Virus record (IMG/VR): IMGVR_UViG_3300045988_112808
Source of the DNA: a virus
DNA length: 64,000 nt
Direction: 5' to 3' (one strand)
A program made the position numbers and the translations under genes. The notes beneath the pieces were generated by a model, which did not search any database, was not told the DNA's origin, and worked only from the letters and a program-made list of their open reading frames with translations. Of the stretch, positions 23,633-49,215 are shown in pieces (the first letter of the stretch is position 1; the number at the start of each line of letters is the position of its first letter).

Positions 23633-24820
23633 TCACAAAATATTTATTCTAACCGGATTAAACACAAATCCACTATCGATTATCTTTCCAATGAAAGAAT
23701 CACCGATTACTTTTCTTGCTATTCCAATTGCTCCATTAATATCTGCATTGATCAGCTTCCCAATAGAACTTTGAAACAATCCGCGTTTCTTCCTTCTACC
23801 TAAGTAGGATTCTTGTTTCTTTAGAGGTTCAAAAGCAAGATGGTCAATCTTTGATGTGTAAGATTCCTCATGAGTAATTACCTCTATCCCTAAAAGATTT
23901 GCTTTGTAAACAATCTTATCAATCAATTTAGAATGAGGAATAGAAACAAAATGTTGGTTATTCCTTTTACCGATATTTATCTCGTTTTTCCATTCTTTGT
24001 TTAATCCAATGATGATTGTTCCTATATTGTTAGATTTACAAAAGTCTACAATGTATCTACTGATTTTATGCAATTTGTCTTCTATCCAACAATTTCTAAA
24101 CAAAGTAATTTTTCTTATTCTATTTGAAGTTCCCTTATTACCAACAAAAGACATCAACTTAGCTTTCTTCTTATTGTACCACTGATTTACTGATTTCATA
24201 ACCCGTCCGTTTATAATGAAAGAATTAACTACATTACTAATACATGAACATAAATTATTCAATCCTAAATCAATCGAAAGAAAATTGTCTTTGTTTAAAC
24301 CAAGATCAGTTTCCTTTCTTTCATAAACTACCTCTACTACATAACATGTAGCTTGAGGGATTATTCTAACTTGTTTTAGTTTGTCTTTCTTTACATTTGT
24401 TTTGATAGGTTTGATTATATCTTTAACAAAATAAATACAATTATCACCCTTTACCCTACAATTGCAGTTGGTGAAAACAACCATGTTTTGTTTCTTACCT
24501 TGTTTGTATGATGGAAGGTGAGGTCTATGATTTCCGTATTTAGAAGGATTCTTTTCAAAATCCTTCTTGAGTTTTATCCAGGATTTTATGTTTTTAAATA
24601 CCTGTTTAATCACCTGTTGGGATACATGATTAGGTAAATTCCTGAAATCGAATTGGTTTTCTTTGCAAAGTTTGTTTGATAAATCAAATTCCTTTAAATA
24701 GTTACCTGAAAAGATTCCTTGACGAATGTTGTAAAGAACATAATTATATAACAAGCCGGATTTGAAGCAAATATCCTCAAACCGGTTGTCTTTAACTATA
24801 TGCCTTTCAACTAATCTCAT
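23633..24820 (-). CDS. tnpB: TnpB-like RNA-guided endonuclease (IS200/IS605 OrfB family), zinc-finger-less subtype
   Basis: 395 aa. RuvC-like triad: D in LSIDLGLNN, E in HEESYTSK, D in INADINGAIGIARK. Cys-free linker SKIDHLAFEP..YLGRRKKRGLFQS between RuvC-II and RuvC-III. N-terminal half is typical of OrfB. Confidence 0.85.
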   Translation of the reverse strand: MRLVERHIVKDNRFEDICFKSGLLYNYVLYNIRQGIFSGNYLKEFDLSNKLCKENQFDFRNLPNHVSQQVIKQVFKNIKSWIKLKKDFEKNPSKYGNHRPHLPSYKQGKKQNMVVFTNCNCRVKGDNCIYFVKDIIKPIKTNVKKDKLKQVRIIPQATCYVVEVVYERKETDLGLNKDNFLSIDLGLNNLCSCISNVVNSFIINGRVMKSVNQWYNKKKAKLMSFVGNKGTSNRIRKITLFRNCWIEDKLHKISRYIVDFCKSNNIGTIIIGLNKEWKNEINIGKRNNQHFVSIPHSKLIDKIVYKANLLGIEVITHEESYTSKIDHLAFEPLKKQESYLGRRKKRGLFQSSIGKLINADINGAIGIARKVIGDSFIGKIIDSGFVFNPVRINIL

Positions 24821-37712: not shown

Positions 37713-38703
37713 GATATTTTTCTTTTATCTTGTTACTAATTATCAAATCTGCCACATCATCTCCGTCTCCTACATTTTCAACATTTTGAAGATAGTCCGA
37801 TACTTTTATCCTTGACTTCATCATCATCTCATCTATCTTTTTACTCCATGTCTCAAATGCTCGTCCTTTGTCCGGAAAAGCTACAGTCTTTCTATCTTTT
37901 AAAACATCTATCACTTCCGGCCTTAGATTCTGCAACCCTCCGGTGGCCACAAATAATTCATCTGGTTTATTCACAGCGCATATAATAGCCGTCTTTTCTG
38001 ATTCCACCAGATTAACCACCTTATCCGGATACTGGCTTAGAAGATGCTCCCCGAACAGGCATTGTCTAAACAAGAAGTCCCTTGCATGCAACGAGTGATA
38101 AAACATAACATGAGGCCGCTCATTGTCACCGTCTTTTTCTTTCACTCTTTTTACATCAATCTCATTCCCCTGGCTGTCGGTCTTTATACAAAAGTCCATG
38201 ATCTTGCCGGTTCTGCATACAAAATCTTTGTCTATCTGCCAGAATATACAACACCCTTTCCATCCCCATAAGTCCATTGTTCCGACATGATACCTTCTGA
38301 ACACATCAGATACCCTTTCTTTTCCCCATAGAGACGATAAAAATCTAAATACGGTGTTTCTATCGTCTGGAACCACAGTCCTCTCAAACTCGCTAAAAGG
38401 TATGTAATTTACAACGTCAGGATTTACAGGAGGACGATAAGCTCTTATACACTTGTTTCCCGAAATCCAAAGATCTTTGTCACCTACATCCTTGCCGGTA
38501 GGTCGTTTATCGTAACCGCAAGTCCGTTCATGATCGCATCTTCCGAACTCGTTTCCAACAACCTGACCTGTTGCCACATCAATATAAGGGGTGAGGCACC
38601 GGCTTTTCCCGCAGGCCGGGCAGGTTAGCTTCAGCCGGCTCCTGCCGGGTCTGCGGTCAAGTTGAAACCGGGGTACGTTTTCGTATTTTCTAAAATCAAG
38701 CAT
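37690..38703 (-). CDS. DNA primase (zinc-finger plus Toprim domain)
   Basis: CPACGKSRC...GRCDHERTCGY zinc-binding region. Toprim-like LVESEKTAIICAV and TVAFPDKG motifs. Confidence 0.65.
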   Translation of the reverse strand: MLDFRKYENVPRFQLDRRPGRSRLKLTCPACGKSRCLTPYIDVATGQVVGNEFGRCDHERTCGYDKRPTGKDVGDKDLWISGNKCIRAYRPPVNPDVVNYIPFSEFERTVVPDDRNTVFRFLSSLWGKERVSDVFRRYHVGTMDLWGWKGCCIFWQIDKDFVCRTGKIMDFCIKTDSQGNEIDVKRVKEKDGDNERPHVMFYHSLHARDFLFRQCLFGEHLLSQYPDKVVNLVESEKTAIICAVNKPDELFVATGGLQNLRPEVIDVLKDRKTVAFPDKGRAFETWSKKIDEMMMKSRIKVSDYLQNVENVGDGDDVADLIISNKIKEKYHEPGCLY

Positions 38704-39046
38704 TTTTAACTCCTCTCATTGCCTCTATGACTCTATCTGCTATAGTTATAGACCATGACACCACATCTGGTACATATACTCCGCAATCTATTTCACCTTT
38801 TCTATTTTGTGCTTTAACAAACTCAATAGAATAAGCCTTAATAAGATCGAATCTACGTTGCTCCCAGTCTACATCTTTGTTTTCGTCATTTACAGGAAGG
38901 GTATCGAGATAAAAATTTAAACTCTCACTTATCACATTCCCATTATCACCATAGAACTGTATTCTGTCATGGTCGCTTCTTGTAGTTGAGCTACTGAAAG
39001 TGATTACGTCTATTATCTCTCCTGTTCTTCTAATTTTTCTTTTCAT
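38696..39046 (-). CDS. hypothetical protein with a DWEQRR module (116 aa)
   Basis: DVDWEQRRFDLIKAYSIEF; the same motif appears in the C-terminal extension of methyltransferase 47599-48261. Confidence 0.65.
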   Translation of the reverse strand: MKRKIRRTGEIIDVITFSSSTTRSDHDRIQFYGDNGNVISESLNFYLDTLPVNDENKDVDWEQRRFDLIKAYSIEFVKAQNRKGEIDCGVYVPDVVSWSITIADRVIEAMRGVKNA

Positions 39047-44047: not shown

Positions 44048-44794
44048 TTAGTTGTTAGATAAAAGCAAAATCGGTTCATTTGACTCCGCAATTGCTTTTA
44101 TTTGTTCTGGATTGACAAAACTCTTAACTTGTTCGCTTATATTACAAATGGACTTGATCATATCAACGAATAATTTCGAGGTACATTCGTTACACTCCAC
44201 TTCCATTACCTGTTTATGTCTATTGTATGATATGCTCGTTACACAATTCAGCCAGTGCGCATAAGTTCCTTTTTCTGTATTTAACCTGCCGTATTCTACT
44301 TTTGTCTCTCCATTTCCATATTCAATTACTCTTTTTAGAAATGGTTTTGCATAAACACTAAAACCGAAAGGTTGGGTGTTTAAGGCATCTAAACGGGAAG
44401 TTCCATCTCTCCATTTTCCATTTTCATCGCCTCCTGTCCATTCCTTAGAGGGGTTAGGGACAATATTTCCGTTTTTGTCATAGGAAAACGTGCAATTCGT
44501 TTCCAGTTGATACTTAATAACAGGCACTTCTTCTACTATTTTATAACTCAAACATCTCTTCAGAACTTCCCTGATTTGACTTTCCAAATCAGAAAGTGCT
44601 ATACTATTGAAATATCCTTCGTTGCCTAATCTGTTTGTAGGTAATTTGATCCCATAAGAATGAATCTTGTCCACATCTTCTTTTGACAAGGTAGTGGTAA
44701 ACACTCCTTCTTTGGTGACATTCACTTTAACAGTTACAGACAAACTGTTATTAGCGTTCTTTTCCGTTATATTTAGTGTTGTTAATGCTGCCAT
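44048..44794 (-). CDS. hypothetical protein (248 aa)
   Basis: ORF-track ORF. Confidence 0.7.
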   Translation of the reverse strand: MAALTTLNITEKNANNSLSVTVKVNVTKEGVFTTTLSKEDVDKIHSYGIKLPTNRLGNEGYFNSIALSDLESQIREVLKRCLSYKIVEEVPVIKYQLETNCTFSYDKNGNIVPNPSKEWTGGDENGKWRDGTSRLDALNTQPFGFSVYAKPFLKRVIEYGNGETKVEYGRLNTEKGTYAHWLNCVTSISYNRHKQVMEVECNECTSKLFVDMIKSICNISEQVKSFVNPEQIKAIAESNEPILLLSNN

Positions 44795-44812
44795 AATCAG
44801 ATCTTTTTAAAA

Positions 44813-45469: not shown

Positions 45470-45811
45470 TTATAAGTGATTTTGTTTTATATCAGGTAAG
45501 TAATTTGTAATAACATCAAGTGATATCCATAACTCTGGCTCTATGCTGTTTTTTATTCTATCACTAAAAAGCGAATTATCATCACAATCACAATGAGAGA
45601 TTGTGATATAACAATCTTGATAATCCCACCAATGAGCCGATTTAAAATCGTCCCCTCCATTCCAGAATCCTATTCTTATACCTCTTGGGTTGAAATCTTC
45701 ATCTATCCAACTTGGATGATAAGCCAACACTTCTTCTCCCTCTGGAGGTTTTTCCTCTTTGTATTTCTTCCAGTTCATATCACTTTTAATTAGTTGGACA
45801 CAAATGTACAA
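45470..45811 (-). CDS. hypothetical protein, DUF551-like N-terminal pattern (113 aa)
   Basis: WKKYKEEKPPEGEEVLAY resembles the DUF551 W...e.P..g..vL motif. Weak assignment. Confidence 0.55.
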   Translation of the reverse strand: MYICVQLIKSDMNWKKYKEEKPPEGEEVLAYHPSWIDEDFNPRGIRIGFWNGGDDFKSAHWWDYQDCYITISHCDCDDNSLFSDRIKNSIEPELWISLDVITNYLPDIKQNHL

Positions 45812-46590
45812 ATTTTATTAAGATACCCTTCTGTCATCTCTATGAAATTCACACAATCTAATTTGCTTAACTTGTAAATCAATGCCGGATTGTGTACTAT
45901 GGCTATAATTTGTGTTTGTGGTTTATGGAATGACAATACATTATAAATTTGCATTATGTTGTCAATGTCAAGATTCCTGTCTGGCTCATCCATGAGAACC
46001 GTGTATTCAAAACTGCTTTCTGTTAATGTTATGCGGTTTCTTTCATAATACTTCAACAGGTTATCAATTCTTTTAATCCAAAACGCATTTGATTTTTTCT
46101 TGTATTCTACAAGATCTTGTATTGGAAATGTATAATCCTTTTGACCGAACATTAAATTGAAAAGTGATTCCAATGACAACACCACTTTCTCTCCATAAGA
46201 TCTTCGAATATTATTCACATACAAATCTAAGTTGCTGATGTTTTTCAATACGCTATCTCGATTCATCTCCGCCGATGGCAATAAACGGAATACTTTCCCT
46301 GCATAATCGGATGATATGTCAATCCCATCAAGAACCTTGTCATCATCATCATCAAATATAGGTGGAAAATCCAGTGCCTCGATCGGTATTTCAGAACACA
46401 TGGATTTCTCACATAACGCATACATTGATATGATGTTAAGCAAGGTTGATTTTCCACTACCGTTTTTACCTATAATTACATTCACTCCTGGCTTGAAAAT
46501 AAATTCTCTGCCATTTTCAAATGCTTCTATATTAGAAACGTATTCAAATGGAGTTTTTGTATTGTCTTTTATTTTTACCGATGTTATCAT
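45790..46590 (-). CDS. ABC/AAA-type ATPase (266 aa)
   Basis: Walker A GKNGSGKSTLLN, Walker B VLMDEPDRNLD, H-loop-like AIVHNP. Confidence 0.7.
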   Translation of the reverse strand: MITSVKIKDNTKTPFEYVSNIEAFENGREFIFKPGVNVIIGKNGSGKSTLLNIISMYALCEKSMCSEIPIEALDFPPIFDDDDDKVLDGIDISSDYAGKVFRLLPSAEMNRDSVLKNISNLDLYVNNIRRSYGEKVVLSLESLFNLMFGQKDYTFPIQDLVEYKKKSNAFWIKRIDNLLKYYERNRITLTESSFEYTVLMDEPDRNLDIDNIMQIYNVLSFHKPQTQIIAIVHNPALIYKLSKLDCVNFIEMTEGYLNKICTFVSN

Positions 46591-46602
46591 ATGTAATCCT
46601 TT

Positions 46603-47442
46603 TTAAAAATCAATTACCGCCCGAACCCTGTAACTATTGTACTCAATGTTGCTGTGCGTGCCGCCAATGGAGAAGCTCACGAACCATGCGCTGACCTTGC
46701 TGTACTCGGTACTGGACCAATACCGCGCCGAGGAGAGGGGAGATGCCGAAACATAAGCGAATGCTTTGTTTAGTTCGTCCATATGATGGGCCATTAAATT
46801 TAATTGACCAAGAGATGGTATATACTCGTCATCTTCCAGCAGATTTCTCAATTTTGGATTTCTGGCTACAAGGCGTTCCGTATTGCCGCGTCCGTCAATA
46901 TCAAACAGCGCATCACATTCACGTTCGTAATATGTCTCACTTCCGGATTCTTTACGGCTATCATTGTCAAGCAACCGTACACTATCATGCTCCTCCAGCG
47001 AGATAGCAAACGATACGTCTTTGTGTTTTAATCCGATATAACGCACATTCTCTTTAATATTCTCTCCAGTAAACGGCTCAGCGTGTCCGTTTCCGTAGAT
47101 TAGATACAAACCATCTTTTCTTGATGGTACTCTATTTTCACATACACATCTTTCATTTTTGGGACTTACAATTATGTTCAACTCATTCAACACATGATCT
47201 TTTATAACCTCCTTACATATTTTACCTACAAAACCATAGCCTTCTTTTTGTTTAAGTTCGTCATTCACCATACATCTAATCCAATGCTCTATCTGATTGT
47301 TTCCTCCGTATGTATTAAGCATACACTGTTTTACGAGTTTTTCCAATAATGGCTCTATGTTTTTGATTATATCTTCTTTGGTAAGGTGAAGTTCATTTAA
47401 TATGCAGATCCTTACCGCCTTGTATTCTTTACTTGCGCTCAT
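46603..47442 (-). CDS. protein with a DUF1566-like C-terminal domain (279 aa)
   Basis: IPSLGQLNLMAHHMDELNKAF...ARYWSSTEYSKVSAWFVSFSIGG....YRVRAV matches the DUF1566 / Lcl C-terminal pattern. This domain is encoded by GC-rich island 46615-46750. Confidence 0.65.
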   Translation of the reverse strand: MSASKEYKAVRICILNELHLTKEDIIKNIEPLLEKLVKQCMLNTYGGNNQIEHWIRCMVNDELKQKEGYGFVGKICKEVIKDHVLNELNIIVSPKNERCVCENRVPSRKDGLYLIYGNGHAEPFTGENIKENVRYIGLKHKDVSFAISLEEHDSVRLLDNDSRKESGSETYYERECDALFDIDGRGNTERLVARNPKLRNLLEDDEYIPSLGQLNLMAHHMDELNKAFAYVSASPLSSARYWSSTEYSKVSAWFVSFSIGGTHSNIEYNSYRVRAVIDF

Positions 47443-47449
47443 AATATAT

Positions 47450-47602
47450 CTACTTAATACTGTGAATTATATTTTTTTTCTCTCTCCCACTATCTTCCCC
47501 TATAGGATTATTCCATCCGTATTTTACAGCCGTAGCTTTAAATAGAGGAAGTCTATAAAATCTATAATCATTCTCAAGATGAGTATATACTGTTGATTTC
47601 AT
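47450..47602 (-). CDS. small hypothetical protein (50 aa, below the ORF-track cutoff)
   Basis: ATG 47602 forms an ATGA overlap with the methyltransferase stop and ends at TAG 47452-47450. Fills a 156-nt gap. Confidence 0.4.
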   Translation of the reverse strand: MKSTVYTHLENDYRFYRLPLFKATAVKYGWNNPIGEDSGREKKNIIHSIK

Positions 47603-48261
47603 TTCAGTTCTTTAATTAAAGCATCCGCATATATTACAGCTAATTCAGCCGCCTTATCACACGCTTCCAATATTAATTCACCGTGAGGTCCACGTCCCGA
47701 TACGGATGTGATCGGAAGTATGGTTTTTGCTATCTCGTATCTACGTTGTTCCCAATCTACATGGGTGTTACACGGTTCTTGATTGACCTGTATATATCTT
47801 CCTTCAATATTAGAAGATCTTAATGTTTCCGCATTCTCTTCGCCGAATGCAACCAGAATAGACCCACATCCTGGACTTTCACCTATTGTTCCATCTTCTC
47901 TGTGGAATTTTATCCTTCCTTTCATGAACAATATACCTTTTGCTTTCGGGAATACAACATTCTGAAACATCTTATTGTCAAGACGATTAAAAAGAAGAGC
48001 TATTCCATTATTGTGCTCTACCATACGAGTAATAAAATGCTCTATAGTCGGTCTTGAATAAGGTGGGTTTAACCATACCCTTCCTTCCCATTTTTGTTTT
48101 AATCCATCTTGCTCTTTGTTATACATAACCCTGGCTGTCCTCCATAACGGACGCATAGGCGCACATGGATCTAAATCAAATTCCCCTAAAGCGTCTATAA
48201 TTTCTTTAGGTGTGTACCATTCATCTGTACTGTTTTTAGATTTCTCAAATGATGTATTCAT
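47599..48261 (-). CDS. DNA N6-adenine methyltransferase (phage Dam family) with a C-terminal DWEQRR extension
   Basis: DEWYTPKEIIDALGEFDLDPCAP...WEGRVWLNPPYSRP (NPPY catalytic motif); the C-terminal about 60 aa contain VDWEQRRYEIAK. Confidence 0.8.
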   Translation of the reverse strand: MNTSFEKSKNSTDEWYTPKEIIDALGEFDLDPCAPMRPLWRTARVMYNKEQDGLKQKWEGRVWLNPPYSRPTIEHFITRMVEHNNGIALLFNRLDNKMFQNVVFPKAKGILFMKGRIKFHREDGTIGESPGCGSILVAFGEENAETLRSSNIEGRYIQVNQEPCNTHVDWEQRRYEIAKTILPITSVSGRGPHGELILEACDKAAELAVIYADALIKELK

Positions 48262-48279
48262 ATATCTATGTTTTATAAG

Positions 48280-48942
48280 TTAATCCCATCCTCCAGTAGT
48301 GTACAAAGATACATCTTCCTCCTCTACGTTTACCCCTTTAATAGCCTGTAGAAGTTTTTTCTTTGTCTCCCGGCACATATTGTAACCATATCCTTTATAC
48401 CGATATGAGCGCTCCCATGTGCTTACTGGAAAAGGAATATTTTCGTCAATGACCAGCCTCTTCATATGAAGATGTTCGAAGAATTTCTCATGATAGAGTA
48501 GTTTGTACTCGTATGCTACTATGCTTGCGGATGAGAATGGAAAATAATCATCTTCTTTTTCTTCGTATTTGGGCTCCTTATAGTAAGCCATTTTTGTCAC
48601 AGTAAAATCGAAGCTTCTAAGAATCTCTTTCGGCTTTCCAAACTCTGACTCTATGAACTCTATCCATACCTTTTCTCCCTCTTTCTGGAACGCACATACC
48701 TTCTCATTTCTGTACTTAAATTTCCATCCTTCTTTCTGATGTTTTTCATCATTGAACGAATCAATAGCCTCCTGAAAATCGCTTTCACTTTCAAAGAAAA
48801 TATCAATGTCTTTTACTCTTTCTCCGGAAAGGATATTTTTAAAACATCCACCAGCTATGAATCCTTTGTGGCCTTCCATATACTTGTCAAGCCATCTTAT
48901 TTGCCAGAAATTATCTGGAGTATCTATTACAAAATTATTCAT
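48280..48942 (-). CDS. Pol-beta-superfamily nucleotidyltransferase-domain protein (220 aa)
   Basis: IAGGCFKNILSGERVKDIDIFF fits the hG[GS]-x9-13-DhD minimal NTase signature. Substrate unknown. Confidence 0.5.
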   Translation of the reverse strand: MNNFVIDTPDNFWQIRWLDKYMEGHKGFIAGGCFKNILSGERVKDIDIFFESESDFQEAIDSFNDEKHQKEGWKFKYRNEKVCAFQKEGEKVWIEFIESEFGKPKEILRSFDFTVTKMAYYKEPKYEEKEDDYFPFSSASIVAYEYKLLYHEKFFEHLHMKRLVIDENIPFPVSTWERSYRYKGYGYNMCRETKKKLLQAIKGVNVEEEDVSLYTTGGWD

Positions 48943-48960: not shown

Positions 48961-49215
48961 TTACCAAGCGAGATAAAAATTCCGCTTCACAATAATACAA
49001 TGAGTGTAATTACTCAGGTCGATTCCGTTGTCCGTAAATGCATCCAGGACCCGTTTTTCCACGTATTTGAGTTTTACTGTTATCCCCTTCTTAAACACTT
49101 CTATTAACTTCTCATTGCACTCAATAGGTCCAATAAGACAGTATCTATTCGAAGGACTGTCTGATATACAATATGTCTGACATCCTAACATGTTGCTTAA
49201 AATTACTTCGTTCAT
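48961..49215 (-). CDS. hypothetical protein (84 aa)
   Basis: ORF-track ORF. Confidence 0.6.
   Translation of the reverse strand: MNEVILSNMLGCQTYCISDSPSNRYCLIGPIECNEKLIEVFKKGITVKLKYVEKRVLDAFTDNGIDLSNYTHCIIVKRNFYLAW

Follow-up and report, generated by a model that had tools for sequence, protein, structure and literature searches.

The interval 45790-48942 of IMG/VR virus record IMGVR_UViG_3300045988_112808, of which a stretch of 64,000 nucleotides was analysed (the window), carries four genes and a 50-aa open reading frame (ORF). The genes encode a stand-alone ABC-type ATPase, a DUF1566/Lcl_C-like early protein, an orphan Dam-family N6-adenine methyltransferase (MTase) and a short nucleotidyltransferase (NTase) of the Gad2 family, and a sequence-only reading had joined them into one defence or counter-defence module. 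Comparison with related genomes led to a different result: the interval is probably a mosaic accessory stretch of the early/replication block, in which four functionally independent genes lie side by side and do not form one system. The biochemical functions and anti-defence roles are all ones that we infer; counter-defence is plausible, as far as the sequences go, for two of the genes, the Gad2-like NTase and the patchily distributed orphan Dam. The DUF1566-like gene appears to be an orphan copy of a remote target of a diversity-generating retroelement (DGR), and the template repeat (TR) matching its variable region (VR) was found in a second phage lineage. Defence-flavoured genes that lie together in the early region of a phage are weak evidence of a system, and here the question was settled by the variation among ~100 near-identical genomes.

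The window can be assigned, from its sequence, to an epsilon crAss-like phage. In comparison with crAssE-Sib (OR575929.1), a complete 151-kb genome from the human gut which encodes crAss-type muzzle and ring proteins, the region was 94% identical over 86% of a 5-kb query. It has been published that crAssE-Sib is an epsilon crAss-like phage, for which the genus Epsilonunovirus was proposed. A Bacteroidales host is indicated for the window, because cultured Bacteroides and Phocaeicola phages (BT50, SJC01 and BV741P4 among them) encode methylases that share 67-69% identity with residues 1-160 of Dam, and the NTase was 56% identical to a B. fragilis phage protein.

Linkage of the four genes in related genomes

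The ORF list agrees with the sequence-only reading in placing all five ORFs on the minus strand: the ATPase (45790..46590, 266 aa), the DUF1566-like gene (46603..47442, 279 aa), the 50-aa ORF (47450..47602), Dam (47599..48261, 220 aa) and the NTase (48280..48942, 220 aa). The four genes lie within a co-directional minus-strand array from ~22 to 64 kb, which also encodes a DnaB-like helicase, a primase and other replication genes. It was thus rightly claimed that the orphan methylase, the minimal NTase and the stand-alone ABC ATPase share a replication/early-gene block.

For the linkage analysis, ~100 non-redundant loci whose sequence extended 4.2 kb or more beyond the ATPase on its upstream side were taken from hundreds of near-identical IMG/VR relatives which shared 93-100% protein identity. 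The order NTase, 145-aa phrog_5706 gene, DUF1566-like gene was found in 35 loci, and the order of the window (NTase, Dam, 50-aa ORF, DUF1566-like gene) in 23. The slot between the NTase and the DUF1566-like gene was empty in 11 loci. In ~20 further loci the NTase and/or the DUF1566-like gene was missing or fragmentary, and the genes upstream of the ATPase differed widely there. The slot has at least four alleles, Dam occurs in only ~30% of the near-identical genomes, and independent loss was seen for the NTase, the DUF1566-like gene and the ATPase.

The genes were also found unlinked in more distant genomes. None of the other three genes was present within 8 kb of NTase homologues with 60-62% identity, some of which sit among unrelated early genes and others among dUTPase, ThyA-like and carbamoyltransferase genes (metagenomic contigs and B. 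fragilis phage BF503P2). Likewise, none of the three was a neighbour of the NTase homologue of Listeria phage P35. ATPase homologues with 62% identity belong to a different, SPP1-portal-type phage, in whose early region they lie directly 5' of the pRha/ANT gene and, with several small ORFs in between, 3' of the SSB gene; none of the other three genes was found around them.

The junctions of the slot alleles explain the 50-aa ORF. In blastn comparison with OR575929.1, a cassette of 692 nt at 47577..48268 replaces 326 nt, which encode the N-terminal part of the 145-aa phrog_5706 protein; the breakpoints are those of the blastn alignment, and the allele census is further evidence of the cassette. 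The first ~11 codons of the 50-aa ORF come from an ORF of the cassette downstream of Dam (~80 aa and intact in relative L075), while the other ~39 codons are the C-terminus of the 145-aa gene (phrog_5706 positions 107-142 of 149). The stop codon of Dam overlaps the start codon of this ORF in the sequence ATGA. Since the junctions of four slot alleles show the chimera, the 50-aa ORF is regarded as a recombination scar of the cassette insertion, not a designed component. The Dam gene thus appears to stand on a recently inserted cassette: a small mobile cassette would have carried it in, and recombination into the resident 145-aa gene would have truncated the latter.

Many in-frame deletion chimeras of neighbouring early genes were also observed in relatives L017-L157 (proteins P0017, P0087, P0125 and P0358); the NTase, for instance, follows a 50060-type N-terminus in some and is fused to the DUF1566-like gene or to the ATPase in others. 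Illegitimate recombination therefore appears to be unusually active across the region.

These data bear on the proposal that the ATPase, the DUF1566-like protein, Dam and the NTase constitute one defence or counter-defence module. The proposal could draw on the co-directional arrangement of the genes, with gaps of 7-18 nt or overlaps, on the Gad2-like NTase and a Dam that fits the orphan-MTase models of PADLOC, and on the matches of the ATPase to the ATPase domains of mad3, AriA, PtuA and GajA. However, tight spacing is not specific to the four genes, because the entire ~22-64 kb array is packed likewise, and the PADLOC matches cover generic P-loop regions while the partner genes of those systems are absent. 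With Dam in ~30% of near-identical genomes, a slot of at least four alleles, independent losses, and no co-occurrence around the ~60%-identity homologues, the module reading fails, and we consider it very unlikely. What survives of the counter-defence idea is a reasonable guess for the NTase, as a Gad2 homologue, and for Dam, each on its own.

A smaller unit, in which a variable sensor or binder (the DUF1566-like protein) and an ATPase motor would form an exclusion system or a programmable anti-defence pair, was considered as well. The two genes are 12 nt apart in ~85% of relatives, so a pairwise functional link is possible, and where most of the DUF1566-like gene has been deleted, the 3' remnant containing the VR was often kept, fused upstream of the ATPase. 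Both observations weigh against the reading of four independent genes, as do two properties of the sample: either the NTase or the ATPase served as query when the relatives were collected, which biases the allele frequencies, and the synteny of close relatives is due to descent, so that only the losses are informative. However, in L044 and in the second lineage (L232, L204-L230) the DUF1566-like gene is followed by unrelated genes and the ATPase is absent; at least five relatives have the ATPase and no DUF1566-like gene; and the 62%-identity ATPase homologues stand alone, between small ORFs and the pRha/ANT gene. Deletions that had to leave the start region of the ATPase intact would account for the retained remnant just as well. 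A two-gene unit is therefore judged improbable, and independence of the four genes is still preferred.

The variable region of the DUF1566-like gene

The protein encoded at 46603..47442 consists of a helical N-terminal region and a C-type-lectin-like C-terminal domain. Its DUF1566-like label was partly borne out: close homologues carry PF07603, whereas the window copy itself matched Lcl_C at 20.4 bits (6.6e-4), below the cut-off of 34.9, and matched phrog_4245 at 1e-8. An AlphaFold2 (AF2) model built with 22 homologues of 80-94% identity reached a predicted local distance difference test (pLDDT) score of 43, too low for use. The most distinctive feature of the gene had been overlooked in the sequence-only reading, namely a DGR-type VR of 120 nt (46616..46735, minus strand), which makes up the last ~40 codons.

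Among the relatives, the mean column entropy of the DUF1566-like gene was 0.34, compared with 0.06-0.15 for its neighbours, i.e., it was 2-5 times more variable, and the variation was concentrated in the final ~40 residues. The alleles keep a fixed scaffold (...YWSSTE.S...AW.V.FS.G......K.....VR.VIDF), and the residues between its fixed positions are scrambled. In codons 38-75 of the last 80, almost all variation was at codon positions 1 and 2 while position 3 was mostly fixed, and many sites of the VR had 3-4 alleles. Such a pattern is characteristic of adenine mutagenesis that starts from AAY codons. On these features, the gene is predicted to encode a C-type-lectin-fold binding protein with a DGR VR as its last ~40 codons.

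The TR was predicted blind by placing A at each variable site of the VR, and IMG/VR was then scanned with the prediction. It was found exactly in 4 IMG/VR contigs (the TR-bearing contigs are L173-L176 and L232; TR core AACACGAACAACAACAACAAG), and a scan of IMG/VR with a looser TR pattern returned only 3 of the 4 known contigs. Over the 120 nt aligned, the VR of the window differed from the TR at 19 positions, of which 15 were TR adenines (Fisher p = 8e-6). Across 49 VR alleles, the mismatch rate was 46% at TR adenines and 6-8% at other bases, an enrichment of ~6-fold.

The TR belongs to a complete retroelement in the second lineage. In L175, the layout is a target gene with Lcl_C above the cut-off, an Avd-like ORF, the TR, and a reverse transcriptase (RT) gene with RVT_1 above the cut-off. 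The 60.8-kb contig L232 additionally carries a 214-aa orthologue of the DUF1566-like gene, ~11 kb from the TR. All differences between the VR of this orthologue and the TR of the same contig were at adenines (15/15), and the same was true for the VR of the canonical target (12/12). In total, 27 VR copies of the second lineage comprised 20 distinct VR sequences, and 23 of the 27 were followed by a hairpin with a 10-bp stem. The 214-aa orthologue is therefore considered, from these sequence relations, a true remote target of the Avd-TR-RT cassette. VR and TR also occur on one contig in L174; a misassembly of L174 through a shared block of 852 nt was considered and rejected because the independent contig L232 has the same arrangement. 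Cultured relatives of the TR-bearing lineage were not found by megablast against the phage collection.

It might be argued that ordinary diversifying selection and recombination, without any retroelement, produced the hypervariable C-terminus. The window lacks a TR and an RT, the nearest complete genome lacks a matching TR, one VR allele dominates, and flanks of at least 99% identity share the VR, all of which would agree with such an origin. However, it would have to explain why variation, with as many as four alleles at a site, is restricted to the first two codon positions, why it is ~6-fold enriched at the adenines of a blindly predicted TR of which exact copies then turned up in other contigs, and why the L232 orthologue differs from the TR of its own contig solely at adenines. 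These observations already contradict this explanation, which we regard as scarcely credible, and a DGR origin of the VR is retained.

In the window, the VR seems to be an orphan. Its similarity to the TR ends at GTTCGGGCGGT, where the stop codon comes next, and the ATPase starts 12 nt beyond. Neither the extension of the initiation of mutagenic homing (IMH) sequence nor a downstream hairpin is present: the 70 nt downstream of the VR fold at -2.8 kcal/mol, compared with -19 to -20 in L175, L174, L232 and L044, which have the 10-bp-stem hairpin. In the 64-kb window, the VR itself was the only match of a blastn search at word size 7 and of an nhmmer profile built from 49 VR alleles, and tblastn with two RT sequences found no RT. 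The complete genome of crAssE-Sib contained no matching TR either; its tail-fibre DGR was considered as the template source and rejected, since the TR of that element is unrelated to the VR of the window. Because the IMH and the hairpin are lost and no matching TR or RT is in reach, the VR alleles are probably inherited or only rarely renewed. This conclusion is tempered by the length of the source genome, which exceeds 64 kb, so that a TR and an RT could lie beyond the window.

The distribution of VR types fits rare, cassette-like replacement (trans-retrohoming or gene conversion) and not continuous diversification. Among 86 unique proteins of the window lineage there were ~10-12 VR types, one of which dominates. 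Genomes with flanks of at least 99% identity had the same VR, whereas some pairs with flank divergence below 2% differed at 21-31 of 120 VR positions; the divergence was computed on short flanks, which avoids confounding by indels. Renewal of the VR, when it occurs, would take place in trans during co-infection or by gene conversion.

Exchange of DNA between the two lineages is evident from L044. In this 124-kb contig of the window lineage, the DUF1566-like gene has the full IMH and the hairpin, and genes that also occur in the second lineage come next to it in place of the ATPase. Furthermore, blocks of 0.85-2.4 kb with 96-98% nucleotide identity (L044 7712-10464, L174 1-2977, L175 7770-8621) are common to both lineages, i.e., the ~150-kb epsilon crAss-like phages and the unrelated DGR-bearing phages, known from contigs of 13-61 kb. 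Such identity suggests that the exchange was recent and that the two lineages probably have a host in common.

A DGR with two DUF1566 targets, one adjacent and the other remote, has already been reported for the Bacteroides uniformis Bacuni phages F1-F4 (PMC8143477). The present VR resembles the Bacuni remote targets in forming the last ~35-40 codons of a C-type-lectin-fold DUF1566 protein and in its adenine-specific differences from the TR, and the second lineage (L232) resembles them in having one target beside Avd-TR-RT and a second one ~11 kb away. Unlike these targets, the window copy has a truncated IMH and lacks both the hairpin and any TR or RT within reach, and it is an early non-structural gene of a crAss-like phage. 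The paradigm for DGR targets is Mtd of phage BPP-1. For the phage group of crAssE-Sib, the published analysis describes only a DGR of the receptor-binding protein, which differs from the present case both in this target and in its TR, unrelated to the VR of the window. What appears to be new is an orphan VR in an early crAss-like gene with its template in another phage lineage, while each component is otherwise of a known kind.

A further step would be that the DUF1566-like protein is not a receptor-binding tail protein but an early intracellular binder of variable host factors such as defence proteins, diversifiable by a DGR, and that a second-lineage phage infecting the same cell supplies the Avd-TR-RT cassette that renews its VR in trans, which would amount to cross-phage DGR 'parasitism'; this scenario is regarded as quite improbable. 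Whatever its role, the orphan VR belongs to a crAss-like phage that is abundant in the human gut, and the gene that carries it is early and non-structural. It offers a tractable case for two questions, whether DGR diversification operates in trans between co-infecting phages, and whether DGR-diversified lectin-fold proteins act inside the cell rather than on the virion.

The nucleotidyltransferase, methylase and ATPase

The NTase was correctly described in the sequence-only reading as a minimal Pol-beta-type enzyme with the motif GG-x12-DID (residues 31-47). It matched phrog_4400 at 6e-66, and its homologues carry the precomputed Pfam annotation PF26128 'Gad2'. Gad2 is a 400-aa anti-Gabija protein of Bacillus phage SPbetaL7 with a predicted NTase domain, and its activity was experimentally verified. 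With the verified Gad2 sequences from the supplement of the source paper, BLASTP gave 2e-12 for the Brevibacillus homologue and 1e-7 for SPbetaL7 at 21-25% identity, spanning residues 22-202 of the window NTase and 22-177 of Gad2, while hhalign gave 97.2% probability (E = 4.6e-11) over Gad2 residues 22-163. G31, G32, D45, D47 and D112 were invariant in 32 homologues, and the catalytic residues align with AGG...DVD and FDFTV of Gad2. The window NTase ends at residue 220, so the C-terminal ~220 aa of Gad2 are absent. The short NTase-only form is widespread: 1005 cluster representatives (50% identity) were obtained at E <= 1e-3, typically of 190-230 aa, from phages of many phyla, including those of Bacteroides, Streptococcus thermophilus, Listeria, Bacillus and Maribacter. 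Membership of these widespread short NTases in the Gad2 family is, according to the profile and sequence matches, a new recognition.

The predicted fold was informative as well. In the AF2 model, the head reached pLDDT values of at least 90, whereas residues 161-194 stayed below 50; residues 161-220 are of low confidence. The top 40 Foldseek matches of the model in the PDB were all class II tRNA NTases or poly(A) polymerase I (PAP I), with E from 4e-5 to 1e-3, while a sequence search of the PDB gave no meaningful match. Taken together with the Gad2 homology, the fold indicates that the protein is a class-II-type NTase head within the Gad2 domain family, and it would be neither a full Gad2 nor a CCA-adding enzyme.

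Both comparisons have limits. The window NTase shares with Gad2 (SPbetaL7, Brevibacillus laterosporus prophage; PF26128) the homologous NTase domain with AGG...DxD, FDFTV and H-x-x-F-x-x-H, and both are phage-encoded among early or accessory genes. However, Gad2 has ~400 aa and a Bacillota host, as opposed to 220 aa and Bacteroidota for the window. The best structural matches to the head were class II NTases and PAP, i.e., those of Aquifex (1VFG/4WC2) and Thermotoga (3H37/5HC9) and E. coli PAP (3AQM), with a query-normalised template modelling (TM) score of 0.39-0.45, 15-23% identity and the same GG...DxD layout. Unlike the window NTase, these enzymes of 340-450 aa have body and tail domains of their own.

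It is therefore conceivable that the NTase is an enzyme of RNA repair or tRNA maturation (a minimal CCA- or A-adding enzyme or poly(A) polymerase) which serves the phage tRNAs and has no anti-defence role. Besides the Foldseek matches, a weak PolyA_pol match and the GenBank label 'polyA polymerase' of an orthologue would agree with such a role, and crAssE-Sib encodes six tRNAs, a polynucleotide kinase/3'-phosphatase and a Ro60-like protein. Against it, the 220-aa protein lacks the body and tail domains that hold the tRNA, and PolyA_pol (PF01743) scored 14.6 bits, below the cut-off of 23. Class II NTases have RRD as motif B and EDxxR as motif D. The window NTase reads RSFDFT where RRDFT would be expected from this general definition, so that its motif B is SFD, not RRD; this point carries less weight than the others. 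Moreover, many phages that encode members of the 190-230 aa family, among them S. thermophilus phages and Listeria P35, have no tRNA genes, no tRNA gene was found in the window, and the sequence likeness to Gad2 is far above that to any solved NTase. A tRNA- or RNA-directed role is accordingly thought unlikely.

The preferred reading of the NTase as a Gad2-type protein would have it act early in infection, transfer nucleotides either to a small molecule or to the 3' end of a nucleic acid, and most likely blunt a host defence, as Gad2 does against Gabija. Counter-defence is a reasonable guess because the homologue was experimentally proven to be anti-Gabija. Three points make this guess less secure: the mechanism of Gad2 itself was still not worked out in the 2026 literature, the short NTase lacks half of Gad2, and homologues in Bacteroides phages stand amid dUTPase and ThyA-like genes, which hints at a role in nucleotide metabolism. 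The existence of the short form allows one to ask whether the catalytic head alone blocks Gabija or another system.

Two sets of observations on the surroundings of the NTase were made. In L160 (1-9500) and L167 (Bacteroides phage BF503P2), the short NTase lies between a dUTPase gene and ThyA/dCMP-hydroxymethylase-like genes, and in L160 a carbamoyltransferase and an AAA_28 protein adjoin the cluster. This cluster resembles one for DNA-base modification, and the substrate of the NTase may be at the nucleotide level. In the window, an 84-aa ORF (48961-49215) is located upstream of the NTase in the same frame with TAA between them, and public collections hold 311-aa fused proteins that read Q at this TAA codon (P0001). 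Recoding of the stop codon to join the two ORFs was ruled out, as 1-3 stops were present at the junction in every locus fetched.

For the Dam methylase, the NPPY motif (residues 65-68) and the assignment to the phage Dam family were confirmed, with PF05869 at 8.8e-15 (55.2 bits; cut-off 28.1), phrog_111 at 1.6e-41 and the PADLOC orphan-MTase model (oMTase) at 3e-11. The NCBIfam equivalog TIGR01712 scored 40.5 bits, below its cut-off of 97.05, and the PDB sequence search gave no match. It is flanked by the NTase and the 50-aa scar ORF, and library scans detected no nuclease family in the ten ORFs around Dam. It resembles the phage orphan Dam MTases (PF05869/TIGR01712) in NPPY, in the N-terminal DEWYTP...DLDPCA and in having no adjoining endonuclease, and it differs from them in an extra ~60-aa C-terminal domain beyond the catalytic residues 1-160. 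The C-terminal extension noted earlier is thus real (residues ~160-220) and matches phrog_28300. Its WEQRRYEIAK motif (residues 159-196 region) recurs in a 116-aa ORF at 38696-39046 on the minus strand (BLASTP 2e-5). This WEQRR(Y/F) domain, shared by the Dam C-terminus and the ORF 9 kb away, is phrog_28300, to which no library assigns a function. The methylase would modify the phage DNA and thereby permit escape from restriction in some hosts; escape in some hosts only would account for its presence in only ~30% of genomes.

The ATPase belongs to the AAA_21/AAA_23/SMC_N type (AAA_21 1.3e-10, 42.3 bits against a cut-off of 27; AAA_23 36.1 against 27; SMC_N 4.5e-10). The Walker A GKNGSGKST (residues 41-49) and Walker B LMDEPDRNLD (residues 199-208) reported before could be read in the translation, and only the ABC-type domains were found, with no fused nuclease, again as reported. 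In 23 homologues with 50-69% identity, G41..K47S48, S131-x-G133-E134, D201E202 and H233 were invariant, i.e., Walker A, the ABC signature, Walker B and the H-loop, which suggests that the ATPase is probably active. In the PADLOC scan, matches with E down to 7e-18 covered only the ATPase domains of mad3, AriA, PtuA and GajA, whereas the NTase and the DUF1566-like gene had no match; library and PADLOC scans found no Toprim, HNH or partner-protein match in the neighbouring ORFs. The protein has all four motifs in common with the OLD/ABC-type defence ATPases (GajA, AriA, PtuA, mad3, AbiLi; Pfam AAA_21, AAA_15 and AAA_23). Unlike them, it lacks a nuclease domain or partner gene, and the matches are mostly to the P-loop region; its 266 aa fall short of the matching PADLOC profiles (253-709 positions; mad3 374). 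It also differs from the OLD, PARIS, Septu, Gabija and MADS systems in being neither fused to nor beside a nuclease or partner. Judged by its motifs, it would be a complete, stand-alone and catalytically intact ATPase without a conserved partner. The poly-Asp tract DDDDD at residues 80-84 (46339-46353) varies in length, the proteins of the relatives being 264-272 aa, and behaves like an intragenic trinucleotide microsatellite.

Other features of the window and of crAssE-Sib

Several further observations were made outside the four genes. In crAssE-Sib (OR575929.1 2615-4409, 6667-7027, 72756-74725), an NrnA-like phosphodiesterase is also encoded; it forms, with the kinase/phosphatase, the Ro60-related protein and the six tRNAs, an RNA-repair/quality-control toolkit outside the window. 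A further indel relative to crAssE-Sib, at 44057-44805, involves a 248-aa ORF of the window (44048-44794); crAssE-Sib has no counterpart of this ORF at that position, and library scans gave no family match for it.

The tetramer CTAG is almost fully avoided in the window, with 3 sites (17928, 43230 and 58614) compared with 112 expected under a second-order Markov model, and only 2 sites compared with 223 expected were counted in the first 126 kb of crAssE-Sib. The avoidance is specific for the tetramer, as the trinucleotides TAG and CTA are common. GATC, with 246 sites in the window and an observed/expected ratio of 0.78, is not avoided. The avoidance of CTAG fits selection by a CTAG-cutting restriction enzyme of the host and, along with the patchy Dam cassette, bears on how restriction shapes the host range of Bacteroides phages.

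The early block also contains a gene of the TnpB/IS605 OrfB type at 23633-24820 on the minus strand (OrfB_IS605 4.9e-18; Cas12f1-like TNB 8e-8), and two more TnpB genes are present in crAssE-Sib.

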